This document shows positions 1 to 57,120 of a stretch of 57,120 bases of DNA, piece by piece. The position numbers and the translations under genes were made by a program. Location: NCBI GenBank assembly GCA_000934665.2, contig KZ538126.1, positions 62,001 to 119,120 on the forward strand, written 5' to 3'. The stretch is from Catajapyx aquilonaris. Taxonomy: Eukaryota. The notes beneath the pieces were generated by a model that saw only the letters and a list, made by a program, of their open reading frames with translations, did no database searches and had not been told where the DNA came from. Within the stretch, counting starts at the first letter, position 1. The number at the start of each line of letters is the position of its first letter.

Positions 1-19
1 CTCTTTTTATCTCCCCAAG

Positions 20-3000: not shown

Positions 3001-4870
3001 AAGTGAAACGTGACTGATACTAATCATTTTTTTTTTGTGCGAAGGTGGATATCATGCCTGCAAGGACGTCCAACAAAAGCGGAAGAATCACCACGACGGT
3101 GACTACACCCTATTAGTTGGAGGCAAAAATATATCGATATATTGCAAAGGCATGGGCACAGCCAATCCTGAAGAGTACTTAACATTACCGGCAGGAGAAC
3201 AAGAAAACTATTCTGAAATTTATGGAAAAAGGTGCGTCTACCTCCTTTCATAATTCATATTCATTTTACCAATGACGTATATTCTACCTTGCCTTGTGAT
3301 TTTTTAAACATTCAAATAATTAATCATGGCGCTAATGTTCGTTTCCCAGGGTACACGACCTAACTGTTTCCCACTCTTTTCAGGCTCATCAATCCGGATG
3401 TGTGTCCTTATCAAGGATTGAGGAACGACAGTTGTGAATGCGTAGACGACATGCCTCAACGATCCGGCCTGACAACTTTTTCGAAAATAAGACTAAACGT
3501 CACCCTATTAAGGGTGATAAGTAAGTAACGGCCACATGTAGGCTACTTTTTCATGCTGAGCAGTCTGACTAATGTAGTTTTTACTTTCCAGCCGACGATT
3601 TCACATTTGCACACAACATTCTTGGTCAGTTCGTGCCATATGGAGCAGCAGGCGATTGTTACAGCACAGACAACTGCGCGCAGGGGAAATTCAGCATCAG
3701 TCTACTTGGGACGGACCTCAGGGTTTCGCCATCCACGTCGTGGATCGGAAACGGAAACCGAATGTCCCTTTGGGTCAACCGAATCGAGGCAAGGATATAC
3801 AATGATTCTAATCCAATGACTCAGTGAACTAACAGAATAAAGCCTTCAATTTGATATTAACAGTAATGAGGGCTCAATTTTCTTGTTTTTGGCAGCAAAC
3901 TCAGGCAAAGACAGTAAGACTTTATATTCTATTCACATTGACAATTATTATGTGGGCTAGAAAAATGCACTCACCTGCAGTTGGATGCCTGTTACTTGTA
4001 GTAACTGATCGTCAGGCTATATCCTAAATAGCCAATGACAGACAACAAATTCTGCAGTATCCATTAGGATTGCAGGACTTGGATCCATGCTACTTCAGCT
4101 TCCTTTCAAGTAATAGGCCTCCAACTACACTAGCCATGCAGCCTACTAAAAATTAATTTCGCTGGCGAGTGTAACTAATCTATGTCCACAGTTTTCATCG
4201 AGTGATTTAAATATAGCGTTTTCGAATTGGGACCTTGATAAAAATGTCATGGCAATGGCTCTGCTTATAGCATGAAATATCATTTTAGAAATGCTTTGTA
4301 CGATTTAACAGCGCCTTCCCCTTGAAAAGTTTACTTTAAAGGTTACATTAATAAAGTTTCTGGCGCTAACCAGTCTGTTGACATAAAAATAACAATGATA
4401 AAATTTTAAAATATCGTTGTGCATAATAAGCCTGCAGGAACAAGTTTCAGGTCTTGGCTTGAACCATTTCATTTTTAAAATCATGTTCAATTAAATATTT
4501 GAGTAAATTATTAATGCCCAAACATATTGCCATGTTAGTTTAGCCAAGAGTTTCATTCAAAATTGAATGCAGCCTTGTAGCCTTACTGTACAACAGAGAA
4601 AATTCTCTGAAGTTTCTCAAATGCCCAGATGAAAACTTTTATATTTAAATACACTTGTCAGCCTACTTTTCCATATTTTTTTGCAGCAAACTACTGAGTT
4701 GTGCACACACTGTCCATTAATATTGACAAACTGGGAGAATTCTCGGAAAATTTAATGTTTTGCTTCCTTGACAGGAAAATCAAAAGGTGCAAGGGAAATG
4801 CGGAGGTTATTGCGGTACGTGCACCCCACATCCTCACACAGGATTAAAGCTGGATGTAATAGAGTCATAA
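20..4870 (+). CDS. ADAMTS9/ADAMTS20/GON-1-like metalloprotease, 3' part (tandem TSP1 repeats + C-terminal GON domain); 5' end lies outside the window
   Basis: Exons 20-211, 277-471, 547-708, 803-997, 2242-2421, 2585-2776, 2844-2982, 3045-3231, 3384-3520, 3592-3788, 4775-4870, all phase-compatible. Repeated W..CS.TCG.G...R.V.C TSP1 motifs. GON domain (CKDVQ...IYCKGM...PEEYLTL...ENYSEIYGKRL...YGAAGDCYS...GKCGGYCGTCTP) ends in TAA. Confidence 0.92.
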
Positions 4871-9188: not shown

Positions 9189-9352
9189 TTAAATGTAGCC
9201 TACTGTACTATAGGCCTATACATATTCAGTAGCCCGTAAATAATGCGAATGTCGCAGGCACCAAAATAATAACTTTTAACCAACCGGGTGCCAAAATACA
9301 ACAACATTGTCTATGACCAATTCAAAAAAGAAAAGACAGGGAGGAAAAAAAG

Positions 9353-9425
9353 TACCCCTGGCGGGACTCGAACCCGCAATCCCCGGTTTAGGAGACCGAT
9401 GCCTTATCCATTAGGCCACAGGGGC
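9353..9425 (-). tRNA. tRNA-Arg (anticodon CCT)
   Basis: Reverse complement GCCCCTGTGGCCTAATGGATAAGGCATCGGTCTCCTAAACCGGGGATTGCGGGTTCGAGTCCCGCCAGGGGTA is 73 nt and folds as a cloverleaf with A and B boxes. A T7 Pol III terminator follows (A-run 9345-9351). Confidence 0.96.
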
Positions 9426-10328: not shown

Positions 10329-10560
10329 ATGGCAGCCATTTTTGATCCAACCTACCGCCATTTTGTGTCCCCCAATAAAAGGCGTCAATCACGGCACGCA
10401 TGCGCACTGGTTACATGGAAACGCCGCTATGCGTCGCAGTGTGTCCAACAGGCGGGCTGCCCCCCNNNNNNNNNNNNNNNNCCCCCCCCCCCCCCCCCCC
10501 CCCCCCCCTCCTGCCCTCCTCCTTCTTCGTTTCGTTCTTTCCGATTGGCCGTCTCTGGAA
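10329..10560. promoter_or_regulatory. CpG-rich housekeeping-type promoter of MAN1, containing a 16-N gap inside a poly-C tract
   Basis: YY1/Pho-like GCCATTTT twice (~10335, ~10357), NRF1-like GCACGCATGCGCAC (~10394), inverted CCAAT (ATTGG ~10544). N at 10466-10481. Confidence 0.5.
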
Positions 10561-16500: not shown

Positions 16501-18170
16501 AGGAGGCAAGCCTGCTGGTATAGGGACGGCCACCGCAGTAGGACCTGTGGGCTTGGCTATACCGTTCCGATGTTGGGTGTGGCAGCAAGCGATCAAATTG
16601 GCAGCTAATGCAGCGGAAGCTATCTTTGGTGAGTGCTGGAACTTCCCATGGCCTCAATATTTGCTGTTAATTGTACAATATCCAAATACCTCTATTCCTC
16701 CCAGTTTTTGACACATTGTGACACTATTCTGGGTCTGCATGACTTCTGACAGTGCTGTTTTTTTTTCCACAGGCATGCTAATAGTGGCTGCAGTGTACTG
16801 GCTAATACGCTGGTGGGATCGCCGTCGTCGCTTAAGGGAGAACGAAGTATTTGAACTGGTGGAACAGATCCTGAACATCCTTCGTGCCCACCAACTGGCC
16901 ATCAGGGAAGAGTGCAGCAATGGCAGCAGTGGTGGTCTTTCCTCCAATTCTCCCTCCTACCTGCCAGTGAATCATGTCAGAGACCAGCTGATTCTACCAC
17001 AGGATCGTGCCTATAAGGCCAGCCTGTGGCTGGCAGCTGTGGAATACCTCCGCACCCATGAGTCACGTGTAAGACAGGAAATGCAGCAGGTGGCTGGTGA
17101 GGACTGCTTAGTGTGGAGATGGCTCAGTGATGCGCCATTGCATCGGTATTCACCACCACACCACTTGCCTAGCACCCCTGTCACCCAGCTGGCAGTAAAT
17201 GTGCCCATTGGAGGGTCAACCCCTACCATCTCCCCACTTCTTCACCCCTCACCTACCTCTTCATTGAAGCCGCACCTGACTCCTACTCCCAAGCTTCCTA
17301 CGTCAGGTTCGAAGGTGTGGCAGGGGCAGGCGTTTGAGATGAGAGACGGGAGCGTCAACCCCTTGCCCACCAGCTCCACCCCTTTCCTCAAGATCCGGAA
17401 TATGTTTGACCCTGACGTGTAAGTATTTCCCCTTGAATGTGTCTGAGAATTAGGTTTCACTCCAATATTTGTCAGCATAAATGACTTGCTATTCTCTTGG
17501 CAGAGAGTATGGTGTGGAGTGGACCGTACGAATCCAAGACGCCATCCTTGAGAAGTGCGAGCTCGTGCACATTATTCACATCGGAGTTCAAAAGTCATCA
17601 CCAGACGGGTGCGTGTATGTCAAGTGTGCCAGCCGAGAGGATGCCAGGGATGCATACCATGCGCTGCATGGGTGGTGGTTTGATGGTAAGGATACCTCTA
17701 GACGTGTTCCAATTTCTGCCCTGTCGGATGTATTAACAAAGCACTGCACTCCAACCTTGATAAAGCCAATTGGGAAGTGCCTTCCTATGCTAACCTGACA
17801 GTTGCTCTATAGTGCTGTGCAGAATGAGATTTTCATGGTCTTGTCTTGGTCAACCAATTTCATTCTTGGCATTGCATCATATTCTGTTATGTGAATAAAA
17901 ATAGGGCGTGAGTAGGGCAGCATAATACGCAAGTTTGCAAGTGGATGACATGTGATTCATGGATTTTTTTCAGGCAACCTCGTGACAGTCAAGTACCTAC
18001 GTGGAGAGCGCTACCACGAGCACTTCCCAAATGCCCGCAAGGCAACACTTCCACTCCAGCCGTCAAACGACAAGCGTCTGTCTTTGAGGGCAGACTTTCA
18101 GCATGGACAGGAGGAGGAAGAGGGTGAAAAAGGCGAGGTAGCAGTGGGAGGGGGAGGAGAGGACTTGTGA
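10562..18170 (+). CDS. LEMD3: Inner nuclear membrane protein MAN1 (LEM domain, two TM segments, MSC/winged-helix, C-terminal UHM/RRM)
   Basis: Exons 10562-11058, 13167-13711, 16121-16161, 16235(or 16241)-16628, 16773-17418, 17504-17685, 17974-18170 give 834 codons in frame. LEM motif [66 protein letters not shown]...[33 protein letters not shown]...GCVYVKC...[17 protein letters not shown]. Confidence 0.95.
11206..11298. mobile_element. Tc1/mariner-like MITE (93 bp) in MAN1 intron 1
   Basis: TA|CAGGGTGACCCAAAAGTGTAGAC ... GTCCAGACTTTTGGGTCACCCTG|TA. Confidence 0.85.
11552..11759. repeat. Two adjacent small inverted-repeat relics
   Basis: ACATGTGAGCGA...TCGCTCACATGT (~11561-11643) and CATGAGCGAGAAGCC...GGCTTCTCGCTCATG (~11703-11756). 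Confidence 0.5.
12235..12380. mobile_element. Degenerate fold-back element
   Basis: GCACCAAA...AAACAAATC pairs with GATTTGCTTT...TTTGGTGC. GTGCTTGTTATTAATT pairs with AATTAGTAACAAGCAC. Confidence 0.55.
12935..13114. mobile_element. Fold-back MITE (~180 bp) ending ~50 bp upstream of MAN1 exon 2
   Basis: GTACTAATAACCACAAAAGTAATGTCGCAC versus GTGCGACATCACTTTTGCGGTTAATAGTAC (3 mismatches in 30). Pairing continues inward (GACTTG..TTTAGCAT / ATGCTAAACAAGTC). Confidence 0.8.
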
Positions 18171-20978: not shown

Positions 20979-21747
20979 ATGGGGAAAGTTATGGAGATCT
21001 TGATCGTCGTTTGCATGTGCCTAATACCGTCTCTTTCATTAGGTGAGTACAGTACAGTACAGCCAGTTACATCAAGTCAAATTAATTTGTCGAGTATTGT
21101 ACGCTTATGCAACTGGAGATTTTTTTTTTTTAATTGAACAAAGTAATAAATTTTTATGGTTTTTGATGCAGGAATGGACTGCTCTCATCCTTACATCAAA
21201 CTAGCTACAGGGTGCTACTATTTTAGTGGCAGTCACACTGCAAACTGGTGGAAGGCTGCTGAAGTTTGCAGAGCCTTGGATGGATACCTAGCAATTATAG
21301 GCGATCCTATAGAAAACGAGTCAATTCGCCAATATCTGATCAATCGTAAGTCACACACGATTATACGTACAGCACTGTACCAGAGCACTAACTGGTATGA
21401 CCTAATTTGCAGAGGACCACAAGAATCATTATTACTTAGGCGGATATGACCTGGGCCACGAAGGTATTTGGTACTGGGAATCGACTAGAAAGCCGATCGA
21501 CTATTTCGATTGGTACAAGCCTCAACCTGACAACTACAAAGATGTCGAGCACTGCCTGGAGATGAGAAACACCAGCAGTTTCCACTGGAACGACGTCTAT
21601 TGCAGAAAGGACACGAACAGCTTCGTGTGCGAGGCTGCTATTCCAGAGAAGAAAGAGATAGTGTTACAAGTGACCGGAATTAAGCTTCAGGTAGAACCTG
21701 ATGCCCAACAACCCGAAATAGACTGGAGGACATTTCAGGCCAGTTGA
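20979..21747 (+). CDS. Secreted C-type lectin 1 (QPD/WND motifs, galactose-type)
   Basis: Exons 20979-21042 (signal peptide), 21172-21345, 21413-21747 give 191 codons. CYYF...W..A...C...GYLA.I...YLGGYDLGHEG.W.W...QPDN...EHCLE...WND..C...FVCE. Confidence 0.93.
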
Positions 21748-22059: not shown

Positions 22060-22938
22060 ATGATAATGTATTCCCTTTTCGTAATGTTCATATTGGCGGT
22101 AGTGCCCTTTGCGTCAGGTAAGTCCTATTATAATTTGAAGGGCTCGGAAGAAAAACAGTGGCGGTTAACATGTTTTTCACACGAGCTTTTCATTTATTAA
22201 TAATTTAGTGGATGACATTAGGTTGATTCTTTCAAAAATGATATGCAGGACTAGTGTGTGAAAAAGGTTGGAGGTCAACGTCGACAGGATGTTACTACCT
22301 GAGCTACCCAGAGAGGCTGAACTGGTGGCAGGCAGTCGAGAGCTGCTACAGAAGAGGTGGCTACCTGGTGGTCATCCAGGACGCCACAGAAAACAGGATC
22401 ATCAACAACATGATAGGGAAGGTACTACTGCACTTCATAATGTTTGGGATACCTCAAGATGTACTGAACCACCAATATTTCAGATGCCAAGTGCAGCAAT
22501 TGGATCGGAGGGTACGACATGGGACATGAAGGACAATGGATCTGGGAGCACCAGAAGCACCCCATCAAATACTTCGACTGGCTTAGAGGTCAGCCCAACA
22601 ACGGAGGCAGCAGCCAGAATCAACACTGCCTGGAGATCTGGAAGGAGAACCAGAACTCATACGTCTGGAACGACGAAGCCTGCACATTCACCAGGGCTTA
22701 CATCTGCGAGTCCGACCCCATCCAGCCCATACCACCCGCTGTGCCATCTCCACCAGTACTGACCTGCGTGTGTCCATCAGGCGACGACGGATCCGTCCTA
22801 ATCAAAAAGATCATCAACTTCACAGGAACACTCAGTCTGGACGTCCCAGGTTATCCGGATCCAAACTGCGGCCGGATTCCACAGCTCGACCCCAGGTCAG
22901 CCCCTGATGACCCCGAAATCCCACCAGCTACACAATAG
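22060..22938 (+). pseudogene. C-type lectin 2 (QPN/WND), 1-bp deletion at end of exon 2; possibly rescued by an alternative acceptor
   Basis: Exons 22060-22117, 22249-22421, 22484-22938 total 686 nt (not a multiple of 3). It reads ATAGGGAAG|GTACTA where the paralog reads ATACGGGAAG|GTAACT. Confidence 0.75.
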
Positions 22939-25138: not shown

Positions 25139-26001
25139 ATGATGATGTATCCGCTTTTCATAATGTTCATATTGGCGGTGGTGCCCTTTGCATCAGGTAA
25201 GTCCTATATTATAATTTGAAGGGCTCGGAAGAAAAACATGTTTTTCACACGAGCCATTTATTAATTTAGTGGATGACATTAGGTTGATTCTTTCAAAATG
25301 ATATGCAGGACTAGTGTGTGAAAAAGGTTGGAGGTCAACGTCGACAGGATGTTACTACCTGAGCTACCCAGAGAGGCTGAACTGGTGGCAGGCAGTCGAG
25401 AGCTGCTACAGAAGAGGTGGCTACCTGGTGGTCATCCAGGACGCCACAGAAAACAGGATCATCAACAACATGATACGGGAAGGTAACTGCACTTCATAAT
25501 GTTTGGGATACCTCAAGATGTACTACTGAACCACCAATTTCAGATGCCAAGTGCAGCAATTGGATCGGAGGGTACGACTTGGGACACGAAGGACAATGGA
25601 TCTGGGAGCACAAGAAGGACCCCATCAAATACTTCGACTGGCTTAGAGGTCAGCCCAACAACGGAGGCAGCACCCAGCCTCAACACTGCCTGGAGATCTG
25701 GAAGGAAAACCAGAACTCATACGTCTGGAACGACGAAGCCTGCACATTCACCAGGGCTTACATCTGCGAGTCCGACCCCATCCAGCCCATACCACCCGCT
25801 GTGCCATCTCCACCAGTCCAGGCCTGCGTGTGTCCATCAGGCGACGACGGATCCGTCCTAATCAAAAAGATCATCAACTTCACAGGAACACTCAGTCTGG
25901 ACGGCCTCCCAGGTTATCCGGATCCAAACTGCGGCCGGATCCCACAGCTCGACCCCAGGTCAGCCCCTGATGACCCCGAAATCCCACCAGCTACGCAATA
26001 G
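25139..26001 (+). CDS. Secreted C-type lectin 3 (QPN/WND) with Pro-rich, Cys-containing C-terminal extension
   Basis: Exons 25139-25196, 25309-25482, 25544-26001 give 230 codons, intact. Signal peptide, WIGGYDLGHEG, GQPNN, HCLE, WND, YICE. AATAAA at ~26018. Confidence 0.93.
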
Positions 26002-28292: not shown

Positions 28293-31200
28293 TTATGAAG
28301 CAACTTCATCTGGAGGTGAGACTTCCTTCTCGACTGGTGGTGACACTGTCTCGTAGAACTTGGCCTGAAGCAAATAAGGGGAAAATTAATTAATTGCGTG
28401 TTAATTCAGTCAACGTCAGAGTGCACACACCAATCCATCCGCATGCAAAGTGAAACAGTGCGAAATGGTTACTATTGGTGAACTTGGTTATGGTGAATAT
28501 TGGAATTGCTTGCTGCCAGTTATTTTTTTTTACATCAAAGATAAATATTCCTCCCTTGAGGAATATTTACAAAAGGTGTGATAGGAAAAAGTTTCAAATT
28601 TTAAAGTTCAGGTCACATCAATATAATACACATTCATAGTGCACTACAGGTACAATACTATTGCGGACACTCTCCCATAAGAAGAGCATGTGAAAGTGTG
28701 CAGAATAATATCGTGCCCATAGTACATAGCGTGGACACACAAATGAAATCCACCAAGTCAAAGTGTCGATTTTGAGTTACTTTCACCATTACTCATATCG
28801 ACTTGAAACTACGACTTGTGCATCAAATTGTACTTTTGCACGTGCATGGTCTTGTTTGCATGGGAAATAGGCCTGTTTCCATATCGACTAGTGCGTCCGA
28901 AAATGAGGCCTTTTTAGGATAATATTTATTAATTGGTGGAAGTGATCAGGACTTCATAAACATATACAAAGGAGGAAGAGGAGGAAAACGTAACTTTGTG
29001 ATACTGTTGGCTTTTCCGTGAAAATGTAACTAGAAAAACGCATGCAACATTCCATTGCTCACATGCGCAAGTCTACCTTTTTGCCTTTTAAAAGTGAGAT
29101 AGCCATAGTTGCTTTGGCTCCTTCCTAATAAACGAAACTAATAAACCATGTGTCCGAGAATTTTGACCCCGACAATATATCAGTGATGTATTTGCGTAAC
29201 ATCAGTCATGTTATTTTGGTGATGTTCTGGGTACAGACCACCAGACGTGCTAGAGCAGAGCCCATGAACAATGGGAAGGTATATGAGAAGGTCGCACTCG
29301 ATCCACAAATCGCTCAAGGGGCAGCCTGCCACAGTGCCACTGGGCCGATTCACTTCGGGCATCTGGCAAGAGAAGGGCAGGTCTCTCCTCACTCCAAGAT
29401 AATCTGCAGCCTCTTGGTCAGACCACCAGATGTGGACAAGCAGGGGAGTCACACGTGACCACACAAGAGGACTGTGATTGGTTACCGGCCGTGCTTATGG
29501 CAGGGAGCATATACTACATAAGAGGCGCAAACTTATGTCGGCGCCTTTGTTGTTCGCGTCTTTCTGTTTATAGGGCGTTGCCAAGGCCGGCGGCCATCTT
29601 GACGTGTGTGGTATGCCAACGAGGTATAAATAGGGTACAGGCAAAAATAAGGTCCGCCATCTTTGATGGTTTTGGCTGCCATGGCAACTACATGGCAATA
29701 ACACGCGCGAATTTGAATTCTATATTGGAAAATGGGTAAGTAAATTGTTATTGCCGTGTATTGCCATGGCAGCCCAAATCATCAAAGATGGCGGACCCCG
29801 CGGACCTTGACGGCCTGCCTGTACCCTATTTATACCTCGTTGACATCCCACACACTTCAAGATGGCCGCCAGCCTTGGCAACCCCATAAACAGAGAGACG
29901 AAAAAAATCTAATGTTTGCGCCTCTTATGTAGTATATGCTCCCTGCTTATGGCATGTGCTTGCACGTAGGATCTACCTGGAATAGATCGAAGACGCACGC
30001 ACAAGGCGCAGATGCGAGCGGTGAATGTCACCACGAAACCACAATGCGTACCAACGGTGTTCCATCGAATTGTTGCATATCGATCTTGCCCTGGGGCAGA
30101 TGGAAGCCACACGCACCAGAGTGCCAACAGTTGCGGCGCGGTGAATGGCAACCACAGGGCAACCAATGTCAACAAGAGGCCTACACGCACGCAGAAATGG
30201 CGTTCCAACCAAGTTCCAACGCACGCAACAGTACGAATTTCGCGCACAAGTTGTAGTTTCAAGACGATATGAGTTTAGACTTAAGCAATTATTCTGCTCT
30301 ACTGCCTGGTGAAGTCCATTTAGTCCTAAGATTCATAATGAGGCAGCAAGACAGGATTTTCTGTCACTAGCGCATAAGCAAGTGCTTTGCCATTAATAAT
30401 AATTAATTTTGAAACTGGTTTTCTCCACTTGGTGGATTTCACTTGTTTGCCGAGGACATAATGTGGCAGGTAATGCATAAAAATTGGTGTCACAGGGTCA
30501 TGTGCCTCATGCTTTGCATGTAAGTACTGGGAGGCAGCTCCACTTTTGAATTACGGTGTAACCAAGTGATTGGTAAATACAGCTTCACATTCTAAAAACA
30601 AGTTAGCCCACTTGCTACAACTCTCTCTGGGGGATAAAAAGTGAACAATACCGCTATATAACAGTGGCGCTCCGTTTGCCATCACCTCCACCCCACCACC
30701 TATAAGGCGTCTACCAACAAAAACAACAAAAGATTTCATAAACACTAGATCAGCAGTACATGGCACAGCATCCAGTACTAGAATTTCTAATAGGCTATGT
30801 AAGTTGTAATGTAAAAAGTATAACATATAAAAGATGACACATAGTAAGTGACATGACAGCACATGAAAGCAAGAGGAGGATAAGTGAAATTCATGATATA
30901 TCTAAGACAACACCCCAACTTTCATGGAAAGAAAGTTGATTATTTCGGATAGAGATCCATCATTTTTGAACTCCTAACACACCACTTGCACTTAATCCTT
31001 TTGTAAGAAAATTTTTATAAGCTTTGTCAGTATCGCTGCACAATCTGTATTGCCAGTACTTGAGGAAAACTGACCTCATCTGGTGGAGATGTGATCCCCA
31101 TATCCCCCTGAGCCTGCTCCTCCTCGTCAGAATCCTCTTCTCCTGAGGAATCGCCCATGGCAGCATTTCCTCCCTTCCCGTCACCCTTGGAAGCCGCTGA

Positions 31201-34165
31201 TGTCCCACCAAGGTGCTGGGGGACCCCAGTATTATTGTGTGCCTTGGCCTTTGAGAGCACATCGTAGCAGGTGAGACAGATGCGCAATGGCTTGGAAGAC
31301 TGCATGGGCAACAGGAAGCGCTTGTTCGAGCAAGGGTTGCACACCACCGCTCCACATTTGCGGCAATGATGCTGGAAATAACAAAACACATGTAAAGCCC
31401 ACACATTTCCTCAACAAAACTGATATCCAGCAGGTGGTCGGTGCATTGCATTTACGAACTGTGGGAAATGAATTGGAGACAGCAATAGAATGCTTCACGT
31501 CTTAAAGAGCATTATAAAAGTGCAGTTTTCATTTCATGGATGGCTGGCCATGTGGAACCAATTACTGCTTAAAATAGCATGTGTGATGCCTGCATACTTT
31601 GCTGCAGTGATGTCATACAATTTTAAAGATCCAAGAAAGAAGCCAATGGAAGGGGAAAATGCATTCACTATTAGTAACAGATACTGAAAACTATCAAATA
31701 GTACTAAGACTAGATACACCAGCCGAGAAAAAAAATCCTGCAGCCACCTGCATAAGTATGAGAACATTAAGTCATCAAACTAATTACGGTGAATTGCACA
31801 GGCATCAGCAAATTGAATTTGTCCTATCTACCATTAGATTAATTCTTCCACTAATCATCACTTGAAAGGATCCCACACATTCTGCCCACAACATTAAATT
31901 GTGTGAAAGGGATAATGACCACCCTGTCAATGCCATTGTGTCGGGCAGGAGTCCATATTGGGAAGGGCGCTAATTCTCATCAGTGAAAAGGAATTCCTGA
32001 CTGTGCAGCATGAGTCCCATTGTATGCAAATATGAAGCTGTGCTATGCGTAGTATCTAATCAAAACCTGCAGCTTTCACAGGAGTGATTCACCATCTCCT
32101 CATGGTTCAATATTCTCAGAAGCCAACAACATTAAAAGTCCATATGGTATTACTCACCCTTCGATTAAGCATTGTAAACTGTGTCTTCTTGCAATGCATG
32201 CAAACGGCAGCCTCGGAGTCGGGCACCCAGACAGCTGCATGCTGCTCTATTGCTTTCTTGCCACCTGAAGGAAGACCCACAAATATTATTCTCATGGCAG
32301 TGACCAAGACCACGTACTCCAACTTGATTTAATTATTTACATTATAAAGGCATATAAAGAGAAAAAACATACTCTTCCTCAACAGATCCTCGATACACTT
32401 ATTAATGTGTGCCATCCACTCCTGCTTCTCTGTTGTAGTGGCAGCATACACAGCAAAAGACTTGGACGCGGTACAGATGAGCCAACCATTGCGAAGCTCT
32501 TCATATGGTATGAAAAGATGCAACAGTATTAATATAATATCACAATAATAATGCAAAACAATTGCAGCACTTTAAAATGTCTCTCATAAAATAATATTGT
32601 AAAAGGTTAACACTATTTTGATACAATTTGGTTAATAATTCTTCATATTTACATCCAAGATTTTACTATTCCCGTTCATATGGTGTACTGCATGAGTCAC
32701 AGTGTTGCTTTTCTCATATTTTAGCATTTCAACTCTATATATGCAAGATGTTATTGCAATATACCATGCACATGGTAACTGAATACTCATGACTCATGTG
32801 TAGGTAGCAAAGCTGAAAATGTGTCATACACAACATGCCTATCTGAGTGTACAGAGCAGTTAGTTACAAATGCCTGCAGACATTTGGGCAAACAGCATAT
32901 GCCCGGTTCTAATATCAGTATGAGAAATATCTGTAAAGAGACTTAATGTTTACATACCCTAGGCCTACATCTAAAATTGACCCATTATCTTATCCAAGCT
33001 CTTCCAGTTTAAAACAACACAATTTTAATACATTCAACAACACAAGAGATCAGATTTTAATCCAGATAGTGCCATTCTGTACATGACAAGAGGTTTCAAT
33101 GACCAATGAAGAAAGATAGCTAAACTTACGTCCATCGTCCTCAAGAGTCTGCAGCTTAACCTCTTCAAGAGGAATGATGTGCTGCTTGTTGTACTTCTTC
33201 TTGTTGATTACAATATTGCCATAAACCAATATGTCATTGAAGAGGAAGAACTGCCTGGGTTTTGGCTTCTTCCGACACATCTTGGTCAGCACCCCCTCTC
33301 CAACGAGCACCCTCCCTGGAACACCCAAGGGCTGCCCCGAGCTGCCGAAACAGCTCTCCACCATGGCAATGCGGCGGGCATTTGCCTCACTGTTAACTGA
33401 AGGAGAAAAACATGGCAATGAGTAAGAAAAACCACTTAGGCCGGGTTGCACCGGCACCCGGAAAATTTATCTGGCCGAAGAAGAGCCAGAACAGTTTGTT
33501 GTTCGTTATTGACAACAATGAATAACAAACTATCCAGGCTCTTCTGCGGCCAGATAAATTTTCCAGGAGCCGGTGCAACCAGGCCTAAGAATTATTTTTC
33601 ATGCAATAATTCCCCATGATAACTTATTACACGGTGGAGCCAGCATTTTTTTGTCGAACTTTGAAGTGTATTTTTAAATATTAATATTGATTGTTCTGGT
33701 GCCGTACAAACATAACAGATGTGGTTCCTTAAGTCACCTTGGGATGGGCAGCACTGAAGCTAATTAATGTGTCAGTTAATAAGAAAAGAAGCCATGCTGG
33801 AACAGTACTAATCGCTGAAGCGTAACATCAACACACCCACTTCGTAGCGATTCACTTCGCCCCAATCTGTCACCTGCCTAGCCACAAACCACGCAATTTT
33901 TGGCACTTGTCATCTCTCTCGTATCATCCTGCATGACTAACAAGCACCATCGATACGGCCATAATTGCCAAGAATGACGCCCATTCCCTGGCACACATGC
34001 CAAACATTTTTTTTAAAGAGCCCTCATACGATAGCCATGTCGCAGGTTAAGGTCACTGCCCAAGGTCAACAATTCAAGGCTGAGCCACATTTTCGCCTAC
34101 TAATTAGCCAAAAAATCAGCCAATTTTTCAGTACATAGACATAGGACCACATAACATGCTGTAGG

Positions 34166-34209
<44 letters not shown>

Positions 34210-34507
34210 GTGGCTGTTCTGTCGGCAACTGACATTGCACCAAATGACCTGCTGTAGGAACATTATTATTATTATTATTATGTGGCTGTTCTGTCGGCAA
34301 CTACTGAGAATGCAAACTGTTCTGTCCATCAGAATTTTTCCTTCCAAAGTCAGCGACTAGGCCCAGGTCCTTTCTTCTTCATCGACCCTTGACCCCGCCG
34401 GTGTCCACAAGCGTCTCTTCCCTTCTTCCTTGTGCCATCCCTTGACCACACAGTTAGTACCCAGAGCCCCCAGAAATATTCTTCCACCTACCCAATCGGT
34501 CCACCAT
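28293..34507 (-). CDS. PLEKHF2: PH- and FYVE-domain protein Phafin2 / Drosophila Rush hour orthologue
   Basis: Exons 34492-34507, 33130-33396, 32373-32498, 32158-32264, 31075-31371, 28293-28364 give 295 codons. MVDRLVNSEANARRI..VESCFG, PH domain GEGVLTKMCRKKPKPRQFFLFNDILVYG, FYVE WVPD...RRHHCRKCG, acidic DSSGEEDSDEE tail. Confidence 0.96.
28733..30451. mobile_element. ~1.7-kb TIR-bounded DNA-transposon relic in PLEKHF2 last intron (hosts the nested fold-back)
   Basis: Left GGACACACAAATGAAATCCACCAAGT; reverse complement of right end GGCAAACAAGTGAAATCCACCAAGT. No clear TSD. CpG-richer interior with short decayed ORFs. Confidence 0.6.
29501..29945. mobile_element. 445-bp fold-back transposon with ~200-bp arms (P/Galileo-like if 7-bp TSD, Mutator-like if 9-bp)
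   Basis: CAGGGAGCATATACTACATAAGAGGCGCAAAC ... GTTTGCGCCTCTTATGTAGTATATGCTCCCTG. Direct repeat CTTATGG at 29494-29500 and 29946-29952. Confidence 0.9.
33435..33589. mobile_element. Near-perfect fold-back MITE (Harbinger-like GGCC termini)
   Basis: CTTAGGCCGGGTTGCACCGGC..GGAAAATTTATCTGGCCG.AGAAGAGCC pairs along ~70 bp with GGCTCTTCT.CGGCCAGATAAATTTTCC..GCCGGTGCAACCAGGCCTAAG. Confidence 0.85.
34157..34302 (-). repeat. Two tandem units of a 22-bp sequence joined to a (TAA)n tract
   Basis: TGCTGTAGGA(ATT)nATGTGGCTGTTCTGTCGGCAACT at 34157-34230 and 34250-34302. Confidence 0.85.
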
Positions 34508-36168: not shown

Positions 36169-36969
36169 AGGGAAAGCAAATTATCAAATTCACTTGTCAA
36201 AATTTGAGCAGAAGAAAGGATGTGAATAGATGCGACTTTTTGTTCAATACATGTATTAATTGTTGTTACTTCTGATAGTTATGTTTACATTCCAGGTCTG
36301 TAAATAAATAAATAAATGTTGATTGCACCCATTTATTTTTGTCTTTGAGGCACTATACAAAATACACTGGGGCCATTGAAACCTGTTGGCACTTGTCCTT
36401 GCAGTTTGCTCTGCAAGTGCAATACAAAGAAATAATAGTCTTAGAAAAAATGCCTGTCATTGCGAATGTTATGTCACTCACATGCTCGTACAGAAATTAC
36501 CTATTGGCACGCTTCGGACAATGGCGTTAAGAATGTTTGCTGCTGTGCTAAGCCATGCAACACGTGTTGCATGAATTGAAGGAATGTTAATGCTTATACT
36601 GCGAAAATAAAAGGCAGTGGCTTGTTGAAGTGTATGCAACTAGCTTTCTACCAGTTTGATGAAGACTGATTTCCCTACAAAATAAAGGAAATGAAAAAAA
36701 ATGGCAGACTTATGTGATGTGACTACTCAGTTCCAATATCGGAAACGAATGGAACCATGACCTTGCAGCTCCTACAAAAATGGACGGTAGTAAATGTTTG
36801 CACTACTCTCAGGTTCGGTGCCTGCGAACTACAGTACTGACTTCCGCCACAAAAATTAACGTCAACTCTTTGAAAGCAACAATGGGCAAAGGCATTATTT
36901 GGCATTTGAAAATTTCTGAGGGCAAGGCAAACACTTGCTACTGAGTACTCTCTGAAGGTAGCAACTCTT

Positions 36970-38507
36970 CTACCCATTCTTCTGATAAATCTTGTCCAAC
37001 AAGTCAAAGAACATCTTGTGTGGCAGCCCCCTGGAAATCTGCTGGATACGGGTGCAAACAAGGTCGTGCTGCTGCTCTTCGTAGGTGGTGTACATATGCG
37101 GCAGGCCCATCTCGGAATACAGGCGCCTCACTGCTTCCTCCTTCTCTGGGTCCTTGCTCCCGTAGCAGTCTTCCAGTACCTTCTTCTGTTGCATGTTGGC
37201 CCGCTGGAGGGCAACCACTGCCAGCCAGCTGCACTTCCCATCACGTATGTCTGCGCCAACCTTGCCTGTCAGTTCTGGATCTCCGAAGCAATCCAAGTAG
37301 TCGTCCTAATGTGAGAAGGATTTCATTTTAAAATTTCCCATTCAAACTCTGATCAATAATGCCATGAGTTATATCCAAGGGCCACACACACGGCCCTGGC
37401 TAGGCGATTCTATGCTGGATTGCGTGAGAGGAATCAGAGGCTGAGAATGGGCAACAATACTAACCTGCACTTGGAAGAAATGTCCCATCTCGAGAAGGAT
37501 GGTCTTTGCCTGCCTGTGCATCTCTTCGTCAGTGATGCCAGCCATGTAGAGGGCGAGCCCAACAGGCAGGTGGAAATTCGAGGAGCTGTTCTTGTACTTG
37601 ATGATAGCACTGTACCGATCCATGGTGAACTTGTCCAGAGAGGCCGACTGCATGTCTAGCGCCTGGCCCATTGCTGTCTTCAGTGTTACGTTGTGGAATA
37701 GCTCCATGCAGTCCAAGTAATATGGTTTGTCCTGCAACAGATATAGGTCATGCCAATGGAGATAACTTTTGGTTCCGTCCGCCAACATACCTGGAAATAT
37801 CGCCTGAGGATATGGTAAATCCCAGCCTCCACCAGAATGGCATCGTTACATGCGGAAAGCCCAACGCCTTCCTTCCTATGCCAGCATGTCCTTCCCCTCC
37901 GTGACTCTGCCTGGTCCATGATGTCGTCGTACATGAGAGAAAATGCCTGCAGCATCTCCACGCACCAGCCCATTATCTGAACCAGTTGAATATTCTCGGC
38001 TGTTAGGTGCTCAGGCTTGCACAGATGGCGATAGGCAAACAAGACTGTCAATCCACAAGTCTTTCGACCTCCAGACACATTGTACTGAAGTACCTGCAAC
38101 ACAATGCACATAATTGTAACAGCTGACAACTCATTGAATTTCCAACTAGGACGCACTTTGGAGAACCACTTGTTGACATCCGGGATATCCAAGTTGCGTC
38201 CAGCATCAGTCAGCTCACGAACAACATCAGGAAAAACGGCCATAAAGTCCCTCTTTTCCTTCTTGCTCACCACGTCACCAGTCACTATCGCAGGCACCAC
38301 ATAGCTATCGACATGGAAAATGTTAAAACCGGTTAAAACGAATTTTGTTGCGACTTACCTCCGCTTCAAGCTTGCGTTCAAAACTGGCAACGCAGTCGTG
38401 CACCGAAGCGTGTGCGACAATGGTTTTTGCACAGCCAGGTGCTTCCCAAGGAGACTCAGCCTGTTCATGCCTACGCTTAAATGGCTCCAACGCACGGCAC
38501 AACTCAT
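36970..38507 (-). CDS. FPPS-family trans-isoprenyl diphosphate synthase paralog A, divergent active site, N-terminal mitochondrial presequence
   Basis: Exons 38359-38507, 38157-38304, 37791-38093, 37465-37731, 36970-37305 give 401 codons. FARM AFSLMYDDIMD..SRRG, GQALD, SARM FFQVQDDYLDCFGDP, GKVGADIRDGKCSWL. Non-canonical GGRKTCG and KYKNSSSNF. Confidence 0.93.
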
Positions 38508-40084
38508 GTTTCCAATATGCTCAACACCAAACTACCATAACGTCCGGTGGAACTCTCTGAAAGTACAGCTCGTTAGGAACATACAAGTAGTAAACATTGT
38601 TTAAACATCAACATCCAACAACCTGTTAACCTCTGCTAACTGCTCTTAAATACCCCCCAGTACCCTGTATACCCTCCAGACAACAGCCAAAACCAAGTAG
38701 ATCACTCCTTGCAAGAGCTTGGTTCCTGTCACATTAATAAACTCAACCACTAAAACTTACTAGGGTTGGAAATAAAACCGAGGCTGGGCGCTGCAGCACC
38801 TGACCTGGTGTCAAACTGAGCTGGGAATAGAAGCCGTATGCGTAGTTGCATGAATTAAAGAGCAATGAGAGGGTGGGAAAGGGGGACAAAAAAGTGCGAT
38901 GGGAAAAGAGAGAGAGAGAAGCTCAAGGTCGAGTCAATCGTCACACGTGGTAATAAACACGCGCTTTTTTTTTCAGTCTCTTCCGGGGGTTGGGTTTGCT
39001 CAATAATCTGTCCAGGTTGATTATTAAATTGGTCTGTTTTTATATGTGAGATGACCTCTAATTCATAGTTGGGGCAATAATAGACGTGGCGATTATTGTC
39101 ACCCAACCTATACATAGCCTACACTACCTATGATAATAATTAGACCCAATCTCTTATGAAATTCAGTGTCAAGTACACTGTACACTGTACTAACCTTGCG
39201 CATCTGCAAAATTCCTACAATTATTGTTGAACATTGCATGGAATTATGCGTGCCTCAACGGCAGGTACTTTATTATTAGGGTGGTACTGTAGTTATAAAA
39301 ATAAATTGCGGACTAATGAGCAGCGTCATGCACTGTTGAGGACGTTGTACATATTGCAGTCCTTCACTTACCTTGTTACAGCATATGAATCAATAATATG
39401 AAGAGGCTGCAAATACGCAAGGTGCTGATCATATATTGATTCATGACTTGCTCATTTACTGGTCACGAATTTAATTTTTATGCGCTGCGTTTCACACTGT
39501 AGTACATATGTTTCAAAATTAATAGAAATGAAGATACAACCTGAAACGACAAAAAAATAAAGGGATCTCCTGACATAATGTAGAGCTGGCAGAAAAATAT
39601 GTCTTGATCAAGCTCATTCGTCATTCAAGGACCTTTGGGAAGCTAATTAGCAAAGTAAACCTGTCATATTGTTATATGAAAAGGAAGGCCTTCAGAAACA
39701 TGATAGTCCCATATGGATTAATAATTTTTGCTAATATTAGTCTAAGCCACTCTTGGGGTCCTCAATAGCACCACTTTTATTCCAAGGTCATTCTCATCCT
39801 GTTGCAGCCAGTAGTATGATGCCATAGACAGCTATCTGCAACCAGACTGTTAAGTTTTACCCCAGAGCGTAACACTGCAATAATTGTAAGTAATTAAACA
39901 ACACTTTATTACACAACACAAATAAATTACATGAAACAAACGAGGACAAGGTAAATGGTAACATTCACAGACACACGGACAAACACAATCTCTCTTTTTT
40001 TTTAAACAATTTTCCCTTTTTATCCACATTGACAAGATGCCCATGGTTTATGACTTTTGACACAGATATGTAACAAACATGACC

Positions 40085-43000
40085 TTAGATATTCCTGTGG
40101 TAAATTTTGTCCAAAATGGTTTTGCATAGAGTTTGCAGCTGCCTAGAAGGCAAATGGTCAATGTCATCATGGAGAGAGGTGTACATCTCCTCTTCAAACT
40201 CGGAGTAGAGACGAGGCAGCTCCAGAACTTGGTACAGGGCCTTCACTTTAGCTACTTTGGCAGGATCATGACTTCCGTAGCACTCCTGCAAAACACCCCA
40301 GAAGTAATCTGCTTGTAAGTCAAAGGTACTGTTTACAGGTTCATGATAGGAGGAACAGGATGTGGGCCTGGGGGGTGCCTATTTATAGTTTAGAAAAACA
40401 CAGGCTGAGTAGCCAGCTCTGCACAGATCTTTGCCTCTTCGTGTTGGTCTTATTAACCTTCTGCTCTGCATAACGTAATCAGAACTGGCCCTCATGAATT
40501 GTATTATTTCTATTTGCTACGTTCTGTACATTTTTGTCACGTATAGGAGAGACTTGTTAAGTACAGAAAAATTTTGTGCAACAAAGTAATTCTACTAAAT
40601 ACAATAAGTTTCACTGCATTAGTAAAAACTGCTAAAGTGTGGCGCATAAGATGTACAGAATGCAGAGATTCAATCATTACTTATTGAACTTTTCTCATTA
40701 ATTTGACTGAAGTGCACATACCAAATATTCGACGATAAAAATGGAGTTATCAGGGAGTCTCTTGATATCATAGTTACTTATATGAGATTTTTTACAGAGG
40801 GTTGTGCAAAAGTTGTACACTTCCTCTTAAATTCTTGTTGCTTAGGATATTCCAATATGAAATTGTCCAGATTGATTTGGGAGACTTTTGTGTCTTGCAG
40901 TAAGTTTTGTCGGGGTGGTTCGGAGATGGAATAATCAGCATGATGAATCCTGTCACTCGAAAAATTCCGGATGGAACCAAACTTTTCATGGGATTACTTT
41001 GCAATGGAACCAAAATTGCCTAGTTAAATTCTTGTAATTTTGTCATGGGATATGCCGAAAACATTCCTTTATCGAAATCCTGTCATTATCATAGTGGTCA
41101 TATCTTCCTCCCTAGGCAACCATACGTGGGTCCATCTGTCAGGCTGTTTCCATACAAAAAGATGTCACGTGTTTTGTTAAACATGAAAAACTCGAGCAGA
41201 ATCTTAATTGTGCAATTGCATTCACATGAAGTGGCTTATATCTCACTGCTAGGGAATCAGCAACAATTTAAAATTCATATGCAGTTCAAAAATTCATCCT
41301 CTAGTCATGACCAAGGGATGCGAATAATTTCTGTGAGTCAAGAACAACCAACTGACCTGCAACACCTGTCTATGTTCAGAAGTGGCAGCTTTTAAGGCAG
41401 TGACTGCAAGCCAGGTACACTTTCCCTCCTGTATGTCTGTCCCAACTTTCCCGGTGATTTCAGAGTCTCCAAAGCAGTCCAAGTAGTCATCCTGTGCTTG
41501 GAAGAAGTGTCCCACTTTGAGCAGGATCTCCGCCATCTGAGAATGAAGTTCCCCATCCGCTATGCCCACCATATGCATAGCCAGGGAGACGGGCAAGCAG
41601 AAGGAGTAGTAGGCGGTCTTGTACTTGACTATGGCTGCATACTTGTCCTCTGTGAACAGGTGCAGCTGGGGCTTTGACTCAGAGCTGGTCAGGAGGTCCA
41701 GTGCCTGACCACGACTTGTTTTAAAAGTTACCTGAAATGGAAATCATTCTGTTTTATGGCAATCCTTCTGTATACTGCACAGTGTAATCAAGAATCATTT
41801 ATTCAAAGAACTGCAACACAATATTAATTCACCTTGAACACTTGTTATGCTATACCTACAGAATGAAACAGCTCGAGGCAGTTGAGGTAGTATGGCTGTC
41901 CCTTGTGATGCTTTTCCAGAAGCATGTAGATCCCAGACTCGAGCAAGAAAGCATCGTTGATGGCTCCAAGTCCCACCTGGCAGTGCCTGTACCAGCATGG
42001 CTGGCCTCGACGTGTCTCCGAGCCATCCATTATGTCGTCGGCTACCAGGAAGAATGCCTGCAACTGTTTAAAAGGGGGTTGAACATTAATAAATTTACCA
42101 GTTGTAGACGTCTCCCTGGATGCACAAATACTAACCAGTTCAACACACCATCCCATTATGTGCACCAGCCTCAAGTCAGCATTGCCGCATTCCCCCTCTT
42201 TGAGCAGCTTGTATGCCGTGAGGACAGTAAGACCCCTGGCAAGCTTTCCTCCGACCACATTGTAGTTGAGCACCTTCTCGAACCAGGAGGAGGCCTCCTT
42301 CGTGTCATGCTGGCCTGTCTGAGTCAGGTCACGCACAACCTCAGGAAACACAGAGAGGAACTCCACCTGGTCATCCATCATGGTGGCTGCTGCAGTCTGG
42401 ACACATCTGAAATTGCCAGCAAGATTTTAGTCCATGTATCTCTATTTACCTTAGTTCATGATGCTACACGTTCCTCTTTTAGCAAGCCAATCATAGTCCC
42501 TTGGTTTGTTTAGAAATTTTGTTTGCAGTACAGATTTAAAAGGAAGTACCATGAGAACCAATCACACACCAGTTCATAATATATTTGTTCACATAACAAC
42601 TCCAATGCTGCAAACTTGTGCATAACAGCCTTGCTACATGCACATGCCAACTAGTGGCTCAACATCTGCGTGTAAATCAAGCTCAAGGCTCATTATTAAT
42701 CCCTTTTGACACCACAAGCATAAATTAATCGCTGCCAACCCTAGCAACATATCGTTTTGCCCAGTTTCATGTCCACATCCCAACATTCAGGCAACGTTAC
42801 TCTTGCATTTTTACATAATCACTTATTCATCATCTCTTGCTGAATATTCTAATGCAGCTCTATATGTCAGCCAAGGCCCTCCGAAACACCAATTTCCCTC
42901 ACTCTACTGCTTTCTTTACCAGTAATTTTCACATGGTAAAGTCTGGGGAGGCAGAGTTGCGCTGCGGAAACGTATGCGCCCACGGATGTAAGTGTCCCGG

Positions 43001-43236: not shown

Positions 43237-43301
<65 letters not shown>

Positions 43302-43599
43302 TTATGATAAAATCAGTTATGCACAGAATTTATCTTCATCGTATGGCCTGACCCCGCTGCTTCCATACTTATGGTGCTGTTCTAATGTCGCATCATTTAC
43401 TGAACATTAACTTGACTTTCCCTGTTGCTATGTTCCAACCCTTTCTGTGCCCTGCATCTGTTTCACATCATGCTTACGGCCTGGGTGTGGATACTCCGAC
43501 CCTTCGTAGCGGTGCGGTGTGCAGCTGGCAGGCTGCTCGTCTCCACCTGAAGGGCTTGAGGTATCGGCAGAAGCGGATCATCAGAGGCAGTGGCAGCAT
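40085..43599 (-). CDS. FDPS: Farnesyl pyrophosphate synthase paralog B (canonical), presequence on a separate exon
   Basis: Exons 43478-43599, 42136-42406, 41860-42063, 41357-41731, 40085-40285 give 391 codons. GGKLARG, LQAFFLVADDIMDGSETRRGQPCWY, KYKTAYYSF, FFQAQDDYLD, KIYHR. Confidence 0.95.
42860..43300 (+). mobile_element. Probable SINE or 3' end of a non-LTR retrotransposon with (AAT)20 tail
   Basis: GC/CpG-richer block ending in AATAAA...(AAT)n at 43241-43300 inside an FPPS-B intron. 5' boundary uncertain and no TSD found. Confidence 0.5.
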
Positions 43600-56040: not shown

Positions 56041-57120
56041 TTATTCCTTGGAAAGCGGCTCCGAATCTCCGTTGCTGATGTCAACGTAAGAGGAACCGTC
56101 AGTGGGGATCAGATGAGAAGTGAACTTGTCCAGCTCTCTGGAAAGTGAGGGGACATTGAATTTAGAGCGGTGCACACCTCACAATATGCAATGCAACAGA
56201 ATGGTGCCATCAGACGAGAGTGTCAACTCACGATTCTGGGTAGTGGTTGAGGACGGAGACGTCCAGACTGGAAACGAAGAGGTGGTCACTGCAGAAGGGG
56301 GCGATGCAGACGGGGTCAAGGAGGTCACGCTGGTAGTCCCACTCCAGCTCCACAGACTTGACCTGACCCACGTTCAGATCCGTCACGTACAGGAAGTCGT
56401 ACGTCTGACCGTGGTAAAACTTCACCTTCGACCTGCGGATGTCGAGAAAAGAACACGTTACACATCGTCTGTCATAAATCGACCGTCCGATGGCGAGAGG
56501 CATGCAATTGAGGTAGTGATTTGCTTTATAAAAGGTGTGACGAGACTCACGGAGTAATGAGAAGGTCGCTGGCTGTCCTCAGACTTCCGTGAATGGTCAG
56601 GCTCAGTGATCCTCGGAGCCAGTCGTGAGACTTGCTTGGCTTGGCCAGGCTTACCCTCACATGGTAATGGTATTCTGGAGAAAACAACAAGAATTAACTT
56701 TATAGCAGATGTCCAACCTATAAGTCGAATTGGACGTAAATGATGAGGACCATTTAAACCACATTGAACTTACTGCTGAAGGAAGCGTCGGATCCAGTCT
56801 CAAAGTACATCCCGACCTCTTTTCGTCCAGTCTTGGAGAAATCAGCTGCCTCCCAGCCCATCTCTGCACAGTGGGTGTTGTCCTGCCCACAGTCAAAGCA
56901 CTTCCCCTGTGGAACGATATTCATTTTGTGCGTGTTACTACACTTAAGTGTATGTTCTCCTCTGCTCCACACATGCCATGCATTACAAGTCTTGTAATGC
57001 ATGGCATGTGTGGAGCAGAGGAGAACATACAGTTGGACTAATCTGTTCTAGACTCACCTGTGTGAAGGTGTCGTAATCTGTGCACTCGTATCCGACGTAT
57101 GGGCAACCGGTGACGAAGGC
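56041..57120 (-). CDS. Pancreatic-lipase-related protein, 3' part (end of lipase domain + PLAT domain); 5' end lies outside the window
   Basis: Exons 57058->57120, 56774-56906, 56551-56674, 56232-56432, 56041-56137, phases matched. CPYVGYECTDYDTFTQGKCFDC....CAEMG...MYFETG; PLAT YHYHVRV...VGQVKSVELEW. Confidence 0.88.
56949..57031. repeat. Perfect 83-bp palindrome (41-bp arms, 1-nt centre) in a 151-nt lipase intron
   Basis: TGTATGTTCTCCTCTGCTCCACACATGCCATGCATTACAAG-T-CTTGTAATGCATGGCATGTGTGGAGCAGAGGAGAACATACA. Confidence 0.95.

Follow-up and report, generated by a model that had tools for sequence, protein, structure and literature searches.

Insects have repeatedly turned isoprenyl diphosphate synthases (IDSs) into terpene synthases for pheromones and defence; the mutations behind the switch remain unknown (PMC10108439), and its first steps are not visible in the characterised examples, which are too diverged. 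Could a gene at an early point of this path be found in Catajapyx aquilonaris? A stretch of 57,120 nucleotides from this species (assembly GCA_000934665.2, contig KZ538126.1, positions 62,001 to 119,120, forward strand; hereafter the window) carries two neighbouring genes of the farnesyl diphosphate synthase (FPPS) type. Gene B keeps every catalytic motif and every motif for binding isopentenyl diphosphate (IPP), and gene A, the subject of this report, has an altered IPP site. A is a spliced gene with an orthologue that has the same odd residues, its departures from otherwise conserved positions fall at IPP contacts, and it may be an early-stage terpene synthase, a tentative reading that is weighed below against four others.

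Gene A is intact and spliced

The coding sequence of A runs on the minus strand from an ATG at 38507 to a stop codon ending at 36970, exactly the interval given by an earlier, sequence-only reading of this DNA, and encodes 400 aa in five exons (Table 1). That reading had described an intact 400-aa open reading frame (ORF); the length and the intact frame hold, but the frame is spliced over five exons and is not a single open ORF. All introns are GT-AG (54, 63, 59 and 159 nt; intron 1 at 38305-38358), and of the splice-site combinations tried for exon 2 a single one left the frame uninterrupted, giving the 400 aa. A stop codon in the same frame precedes the ATG by 27 nt. Exons 3 to 5 each exceed the PF00348 (polyprenyl synthetase) cut-off of 27 bits, which places A in the trans-isoprenyl diphosphate synthase superfamily. 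The two Asp-rich motifs, the first (FARM, DDIMD) and the second (SARM, DDYLD), are at aa 155-159 and 290-294, respectively. The first acidic residue of the protein is at position 60, and A probably carries a mitochondrial-type presequence.

Contigs of a public run of unrecorded kind (run X1; 85,611 contigs, 31.8 million letters) were aligned to positions 36500-42700. A 1901-nt contig joins the exons across all four A introns at the predicted sites with no differing letters; the CT..AC intron ends of the plus strand correspond to GT..AG on the strand of gene A. On the simplest reading of this joined form, the X1 contigs are probably spliced mRNA from the same species.

The IPP site of A is altered at conserved positions

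A and B are about 50% identical and differ at four motifs. A has GGRKTCG at IPP-binding motif (IBM) 1 where B has GGKLARG, LQAFSLMYDD before and into FARM where B has LQAFFLVADD, KNSSSNF at IBM-4 where B has KTAYYSF, and KIYQKNG at the C-terminus where B has KIYHRNI. A retains FARM DDIMD, RRG, GQALD, SARM DDYLD and both lysines that follow SARM. The motifs that the sequence-only reading had named as changed (GGRKTCG, FSLMYDD, KNSSSNF, KIYQK) or kept (DDxxD, RRG, GQxLD, lysines) are all correct against the two sequences, and the human residues to which it assigned them (K57/R60, F99, T201/Y204 and R351) are those obtained from Table 1 of PMC10108439 (offset 14) and from PMC4652608. Human numbering here follows section 2.3 and Table 1 of PMC10108439, the 1zw5 number being the mature human number plus 14.

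For residue frequencies, 373 family members were gathered, 48 were removed for length (<300 or >480 aa), and the remaining 325 were aligned with A and the long form of B. Counts refer to the 323 members other than P0002 and P0299, the orthologues of A and B. At each altered position the residue of A is rare: K57R (2/320 relatives; K in 303/320), R60C (2/321; R in 303/321), T201N (2/320; T in 292/320), Y203S (4/317), Y204S (2/317; Y in 286/317), S205N (1/317) and R351K (8/306; R in 280/306), together with F99S at -4 (2/318) and A102Y at -1 (1/319) before FARM. The lone sharers are scattered (two wasp proteins have K57R, one Anabrus and one Diploptera copy have Y204S), and the full set of changes is combined in none of the 323. 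A has the family majority residue at D103, D104, D107, R112, R113, K200, F239, Q240, D243, D244, D247, K257 and K266, and Q96 is also kept.

The three basic IPP-diphosphate ligands of a functional type-I eukaryotic FPPS, K57, R60 and R351 (1zw5 K71, R74 and R365), are therefore R, C and K in A, and the KT..YS floor (T201, Y204, S205), another feature of such an enzyme, is replaced by KNSSSNF. Where FPPSs have aromatics at -5 and -4 before FARM, A has F and S, respectively; at -4, L, Y or I also occurs among canonical insect enzymes. The loss of IPP-binding residues that had been claimed for A is thus partial: the IPP site is altered and the metal and allylic site is intact, but two of the changes, K57R and R351K, are conservative, and A still has Q96, R112, R113, F239, Q240 and K257.

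The distribution of the changes was scored over columns conserved in at least 90% of the 323 relatives (52 columns), a departure being a column at which A and P0002 are both off consensus; IPP contacts were taken from Table 1 of PMC10108439. A and P0002 depart at 5 of the 52 columns, these being 5/11 IPP contacts and 0/41 others (Fisher one-sided p=1.8e-4). At an 85% threshold the departures are 5/14 IPP contacts versus 1/54 others (p=0.001). B and P0299 depart at one column (90%) or two (85%), none of them an IPP contact. A looser screen (consensus at least 50%, A-type residue in <3% of relatives) yields 13 changes common to A and P0002, nine of them in or beside IBM-1, the chain-length position, IBM-3, IBM-4 or IBM-6. 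Because the departures at the 90% columns are exclusively IPP contacts, the pattern is best read as targeted remodelling of the IPP pocket of A and not as decay, and A is predicted to be a selectively maintained FPPS-derived enzyme.

Relatives and phylogeny

A search with exon 3 gave 51 matches among 98 candidates, of which P0002 (389 aa) is 85% identical and the others 45-62%. P0002 shares 85.8% identity with A across 388 aa, retains GGRKTCG, FSLMYDD, KNSSSSF and IYQK, and has identical FARM and SARM. With P0002 as the query there were 854 matches among 2457 candidates, and among the 120 matches listed none besides the A type exceeded 64%. When 1.84 billion representatives were scanned exhaustively with HMMER, there were 12,419 matches, the best full-length one 57% identical, and no orthologue of A beyond P0002 was among the matches listed in a search over 5.8 billion clustered proteins. 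As judged from these searches, the A type is known from two sequences, A and P0002. An ESM Atlas search returned FPPS clusters alone. Among solved structures the nearest relative is PDB 8a6u, listed under the name 'Isoprenyl diphosphate synthase' (E=5.9e-131 to P0002) and presumably a leaf-beetle IDS. B has a single orthologue, P0299 (387 aa), with an identity of 78% on exon 4 and of 75.8% over the whole protein. Should P0002 and P0299 belong to the same species, A would have changed less than B since the split.

A maximum-likelihood tree of 49 rows and a separate FastTree of 327 rows were built. In the 49-row tree, A and P0002 (100/100, stem 0.51) fall inside the canonical insect FPPS clade (90/88), with a weakly supported placement among the insect orders (80/27 beside a Cimex pair; hemipteran link 80/27 and 84/67). 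In the same tree the pair of B and P0299 (100/100, stem 1.04) falls outside a grouping of malacostracans and insects (96/84). The long B stem invites long-branch artefacts, and a single clade of A and B was not rejected by an approximately unbiased (AU) test (p=0.115). The duplication may be old, or lineage-specific with acceleration of B. Intron positions of A and B differ at three of four sites; the first, in the presequence and of phase 2 in both genes, is perhaps shared. In the FastTree the nearest rows to A are canonical FPPSs, at a path of about 0.95-1.0.

These trees bear on two points of the sequence-only reading. It had taken A as the derived copy beside a canonical FPPS; B does keep the catalytic and IPP residues, but A lies inside the canonical clade and B is the long-branch copy. 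It had also proposed a tree with arthropod FPPSs and IDS-type terpene synthases, and in the trees built here the insect FPPSs are included, with A inside their clade, but members with altered IPP sites are present as unnamed representatives only.

Published mutants and the prediction rule

For human FPPS, the T201A change increases Km(IPP) 10-fold, from 1.8 to 18 µM, and lowers kcat/Km(IPP) from 0.23 to 0.022 (about 10-fold), and Y204A raises Km(IPP) to 44 µM (24-fold), lowers kcat from 0.42 to 0.052 per second, and lowers kcat/Km(IPP) from 0.23 to 0.0012, a fall of about 190-fold; both leave the Km for geranyl diphosphate (GPP) unchanged (PMC4652608). In the same enzyme Y204 hydrogen-bonds and holds Q96, and S205 positions R60 (PMC4652608). 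Product length is set by positions -1, -4 and -5 before FARM, aphids included (PMC10175749). In avian FPPS the product is shifted to GPP by A116W, a change at -1, and F112A/F113S makes the pocket deeper, with products of C20 and longer (PMC10563020).

Disrupted IPP binding or alignment is argued to let elimination and cyclisation compete (PMC10108439 sections 2.2-2.5), and substitution of direct IPP contacts separates the characterised insect terpene synthases from IDS enzymes (sections 2.3-2.6). The rule of that paper, from which IBM-6 is excluded, classed 126 of 430 insect sequences as terpene synthases. Its strict regular expressions (Table 1) were tried as a test and rejected; canonical Blattella and Hetaerina FPPSs fail several of them, and for this reason direct-contact residues were used instead. 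On the heuristic of section 2.5, IBM-1 and IBM-4 are affected in A, as is IBM-6, less extensively than in the characterised enzymes, and by this rule A is a predicted IDS-type terpene synthase.

Proposed function of A and alternatives

Our leading proposal, to which we give somewhat less than an even chance, is that A is an early-stage IDS-type terpene synthase or a prenyl-alcohol-forming enzyme, which would ionise a short allylic diphosphate and condense IPP poorly. The donor side is intact, with the Mg-binding aspartates of FARM and SARM and the allylic-diphosphate residues R112, K200, K257 and K266, and A should for that reason bind and ionise an allylic diphosphate: dimethylallyl diphosphate (DMAPP), GPP or farnesyl diphosphate (FPP) would be bound and converted to the allylic carbocation. 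In the IPP pocket, R60C removes one diphosphate-binding arginine, K57R and R351K are conservative swaps, and small polar residues replace the floor that places the IPP tail, Q96 and R60 (T201N, Y203S, Y204S, S205N). Together, R60C and the four floor changes would lead to poor IPP binding and slow IPP condensation, and the carbocation would then be quenched through elimination, water or cyclisation. The Tyr at -1 and Ser at -4 occupy positions by which the allylic pocket's depth is determined, and this Tyr would probably favour short (C5-C10) substrates. Ordinary FPP would be supplied by neighbour B. The sequence-only reading had likewise put A forward as a candidate IDS-derived terpene synthase or modifier subunit, with a different chain length as a third option; its candidate proves to be real, spliced and conserved, with an altered IPP site, an intact allylic site and changes at -4 and -1, but is far less altered than the characterised synthases.

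Several points weigh against this proposal. The PMC10108439 heuristic is itself predictive, and the insect terpene synthases characterised there are much more diverged, keeping about 10% of the direct IPP contacts. A is 57-63% identical to named, ordinary insect FPPSs and lies outside all of the diverged altered-IPP-site lineages: the 21 family members with at least 3/7 core IPP-site departures are at a path of 1.84-2.75 from A, and some of them carry R127Y, a change reported for beetle terpene synthases (PMC10108439). If A is a terpene synthase, it would have arisen independently and recently. K57R and R351K retain the positive charge, Q96, R113, F239, Q240 and K257 are retained, and A may bind IPP at a higher Km. 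The residue screen found no aromatic gains of the terpene-synthase type in A besides the Y at -1. Termite FPPS-like proteins with disrupted FARM and SARM had no detectable activity (PMC13143122). FPPS copies were compared within this window, and the genome may contain further ones; expression of A is suggested by the spliced form of a contig from X1, a run with no RNA record.

A may instead be a prenyltransferase with changed partners, which we consider possible but doubtful. It would be GPP-selective through the Y at -1, as in the avian A116W enzyme (PMC10563020), or would use a non-IPP acceptor in an enlarged, more polar pocket; the acceptor may be another DMAPP molecule, which would give irregular (non-head-to-tail) coupling, or an ethyl-branched homologous unit, or a nucleophile that is not an isoprenoid. 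FARM, SARM, Q96, R113 and K257 are kept, two further IPP-diphosphate ligands are like-charge swaps, and the two Tyr-to-Ser changes with T201N would widen the acceptor floor and not fill it, which fits a new acceptor equally well as it fits terpene synthesis. A mealybug FPPS makes lavandulyl and maconelliyl diphosphates solely without IPP (PMC10960109), and exclusion of IPP could therefore unmask irregular coupling in A, a further point against the terpene synthase proposal. On the other side, R60C and the loss of T201 and Y204 would weaken the binding of any diphosphate-bearing acceptor, and A shows no irregular-coupling signature. Replacement of a SARM Asp by Asn abolished irregular coupling in the mealybug enzyme (PMC10960109), and for that reason there is no reliable marker of this activity.

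That A is an ordinary FPP or GPP synthase, its substitutions tolerated or compensated and B a redundant or tissue-specific second FPPS, seems improbable. A does lie inside the canonical insect FPPS clade, its identity to insect FPPSs is similar to that of FPPSs between insect orders, and single changes occur sporadically elsewhere (K57R in the wasp proteins, Y204S in Anabrus and Diploptera). However, an ordinary synthase would have to absorb five simultaneous departures at columns conserved at 90% or more, all of them IPP contacts, where human single mutants at two of the sites cost 10- to 190-fold in kcat/Km(IPP) (PMC4652608), in a combination found in 0/323 proteins and with a canonical, spliced B next door. 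FPPS enzymes are dimers, and plant GPP synthase small subunits and lepidopteran FPPS1/FPPS2 are precedents for a modifier partner. A mainly non-catalytic role of A as a heterodimer partner that modifies the product or activity of B would suit two adjacent genes in the same orientation, each with a spliced contig in X1, and is nonetheless quite unlikely: adjacency alone is weak evidence, and the Asp-rich motifs that regulatory subunits usually lose, FARM and SARM, are kept in A and P0002 together with all residues of the allylic site, which speaks for retained catalysis. The loss of otherwise near-invariant residues would also be expected of a decaying, functionless duplicate. This explanation is very hard to credit, with the 400-aa frame intact over five exons, canonical splice sites that are used, an orthologue that keeps the same odd residues at 85.8% identity (75.8% for B and P0299), and 0/41 conserved non-IPP columns changed.

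Comparison with known systems

Canonical insect FPPSs share with A the PF00348 fold, FARM, SARM, the allylic-site residues and an N-terminal presequence, and differ in that A is changed at K57, R60, T201, Y204, S205, R351, -4 and -1, a combination seen in none of the 323 relatives. The insect IDS-type terpene synthases (flea-beetle PsTPS1, stink-bug MhTPS; PMC10108439) resemble A in their FPPS-like origin, in the Asp-rich motifs that they keep, and in disrupted IPP-binding motifs with IBM-1 and IBM-4 as hot spots. Theirs, however, are aromatic or acidic replacements or IBM-1 insertions, with R127Y, whereas those of A are small polar replacements, and A keeps about half of the IPP contacts (against about 10%) and is far less diverged. 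The FPPS-like enzyme of Empoasca (Matsumurasca) onukii forms geraniol from GPP and is near-canonical (PMC6995508; PMC10108439 section 2.4). Because this near-canonical protein is credited with terpene-synthase activity, high identity to FPPSs does not exclude such activity. The E. onukii enzyme keeps the consensus IPP contacts except for E107Q (PMC10108439), whereas A is changed in IBM-1, IBM-4 and IBM-6.

The engineered avian FPPSs (A116W, F112A/F113S) are changed at positions where A naturally has -1 Ala to Tyr and -4 Phe to Ser, but they keep the IPP site and remain prenyltransferases (PMC10563020), and the IPP site of A is changed. Tandem pairs of an FPPS and a diverged FPPS-like paralogue are described for cockroaches, termites and stink bugs (PMC13143122), as for A and B. 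The blattodean FPPS-like proteins have disrupted FARM and SARM and showed no activity (PMC13143122), whereas both motifs are intact in A. Near-identical FPPS copies, one with floor-motif changes (KAAYSSF, KTAYSSF), were observed in Anabrus simplex (P0074/P0075) and Diploptera punctata (P0012), and duplicated FPPSs of polyneopterans may have changed repeatedly at the IBM-4 floor.

Paralogues derived from FPPS whose IPP site is disrupted, often tandem copies, are a kind already established in insects, and A is an unusually little diverged one, its differences from a canonical FPPS being confined almost entirely to the IPP pocket and the chain-length positions. It is conceivable, though we would not count it likely, that the housekeeping FPPS orthologue, A, was repurposed while the divergent B took over FPP synthesis, leaving A as a minimally altered intermediate toward a terpene synthase or a synthase with a non-IPP acceptor. 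A working FPPS is only some nine active-site changes away from A, and the A/B pair would therefore permit a direct mutagenesis test of IDS-switching substitutions, with the canonical copy next door as a built-in control. Should A prove to have new activity, so few changes would bring the switch within reach of experiment. If A is just an FPPS, residues treated as essential and used for prediction in 430 insect sequences are dispensable, and the rule would be weakened.

Neighbour gene B and other features of the window

B lies 1.6-6.6 kb from A on the same strand, and its exons were located by tblastn with A, a four-exon model encoding 342 aa. A 1612-nt X1 contig skips three B introns and extends past 42406, its loose end matching exactly at 43478-43507. 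The frame of this upstream exon, which the sequence-only reading had not described, is open back to the ATG at 43599. It extends the N-terminus by 49 residues of basic character, for a 391-aa protein with the first acidic residue at position 52. Because of this extension, both A and B encode presequence-bearing forms; P0299 has a similar presequence. The internal ATG of B at 42381 is a second start that could yield a form without the presequence, and the two starts may allow mitochondrial and cytosolic forms. Dual forms of this type are reported for other FPPSs. Two X1 contigs with a depth of about 3 lie inside the last B intron (1071 nt); they may stem from precursor that is still unspliced, or from a small transcript of their own.

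Table 1. Features of the window (positions count from the first letter of the 57,120-nt stretch)
Feature	Position	Strand	Remarks
ADAMTS9/GON-1-like gene, 3' part	1-3824	+	several thrombospondin type-1 (ADAMTS) repeats, then GON domain
tRNA-Arg (anticodon CCT)	9352-9425	-	single tRNA
Assembly gap	10466-10481		16 N
MAN1-like inner-nuclear-membrane gene	16712-17419	+	ORF with Man1-Src1p C-terminal (MSC) domain
C-type lectin domain exon cluster	21406-21744, 22242-22935, 25474-25998	+	
FYVE zinc-finger exon	31030-31410	-	directly downstream of A, with the PH exon
PH-domain exon	33053-33466	-	directly downstream of A, with the FYVE exon
Microsatellite, long, (ATT)n/(TAA)n-type	34066-34329		yields poly-isoleucine pseudo-ORF
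Gene A exon 5	36970..37305	-	SARM DDYLD; GKVGADIRDGK 37234-37266; PF00348 65.9 bits; C-terminus KIYQKNG 36973-36993, then stop
Gene A exon 4	37465..37731	-	GQALD; IBM-4 KNSSSNF 37573-37593; PF00348 67.9 bits; 3' end FFQVQ, first half of SARM block
Gene A exon 3	37791..38093	-	PF00348 85 bits; IBM-1 GGRKTCG 38052-38072; EMLQAFSLMY with chain-length positions 37929-37958; FARM DDIMD 37914-37928; RRG 37893-37901
Gene A exon 2	38157..38304	-	presequence end and mature enzyme start (RDFMAVFPDVVREL...)
Gene A exon 1	38359..38507	-	ATG at 38507; basic presequence
Gene B exon 5	40085..40285	-	C-terminus KIYHRNI and stop; after 1071-nt intron
X1 contig in last B intron	40369-40609		241 nt
X1 contig in last B intron	40842-41110		269 nt
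Gene B exon 4	41357..41731	-	KTAYYSF, SARM, lysines; PF00348 126.4 bits
Gene B exon 3	41857..42063	-	LQAFFLVADDIMD and RRG
Gene B exon 2	42136..42406	-	GGKLARG; internal ATG 42381 would give 342-aa form without presequence
Microsatellite, long, (ATT)n/(TAA)n-type	43240-43300		between first two coding exons of B
Gene B upstream coding exon	43478..43599	-	presequence; ATG 43599; 391-aa long isoform
Lipase PF00151, C-terminal fragment	56757-57047	-	weak, 24.8 bits (cut-off 27); window edge

The other genes of the window are unrelated to isoprenoid metabolism. The PH and FYVE exons are, to judge by their domains, probably parts of one Phafin/PLEKHF-like gene.

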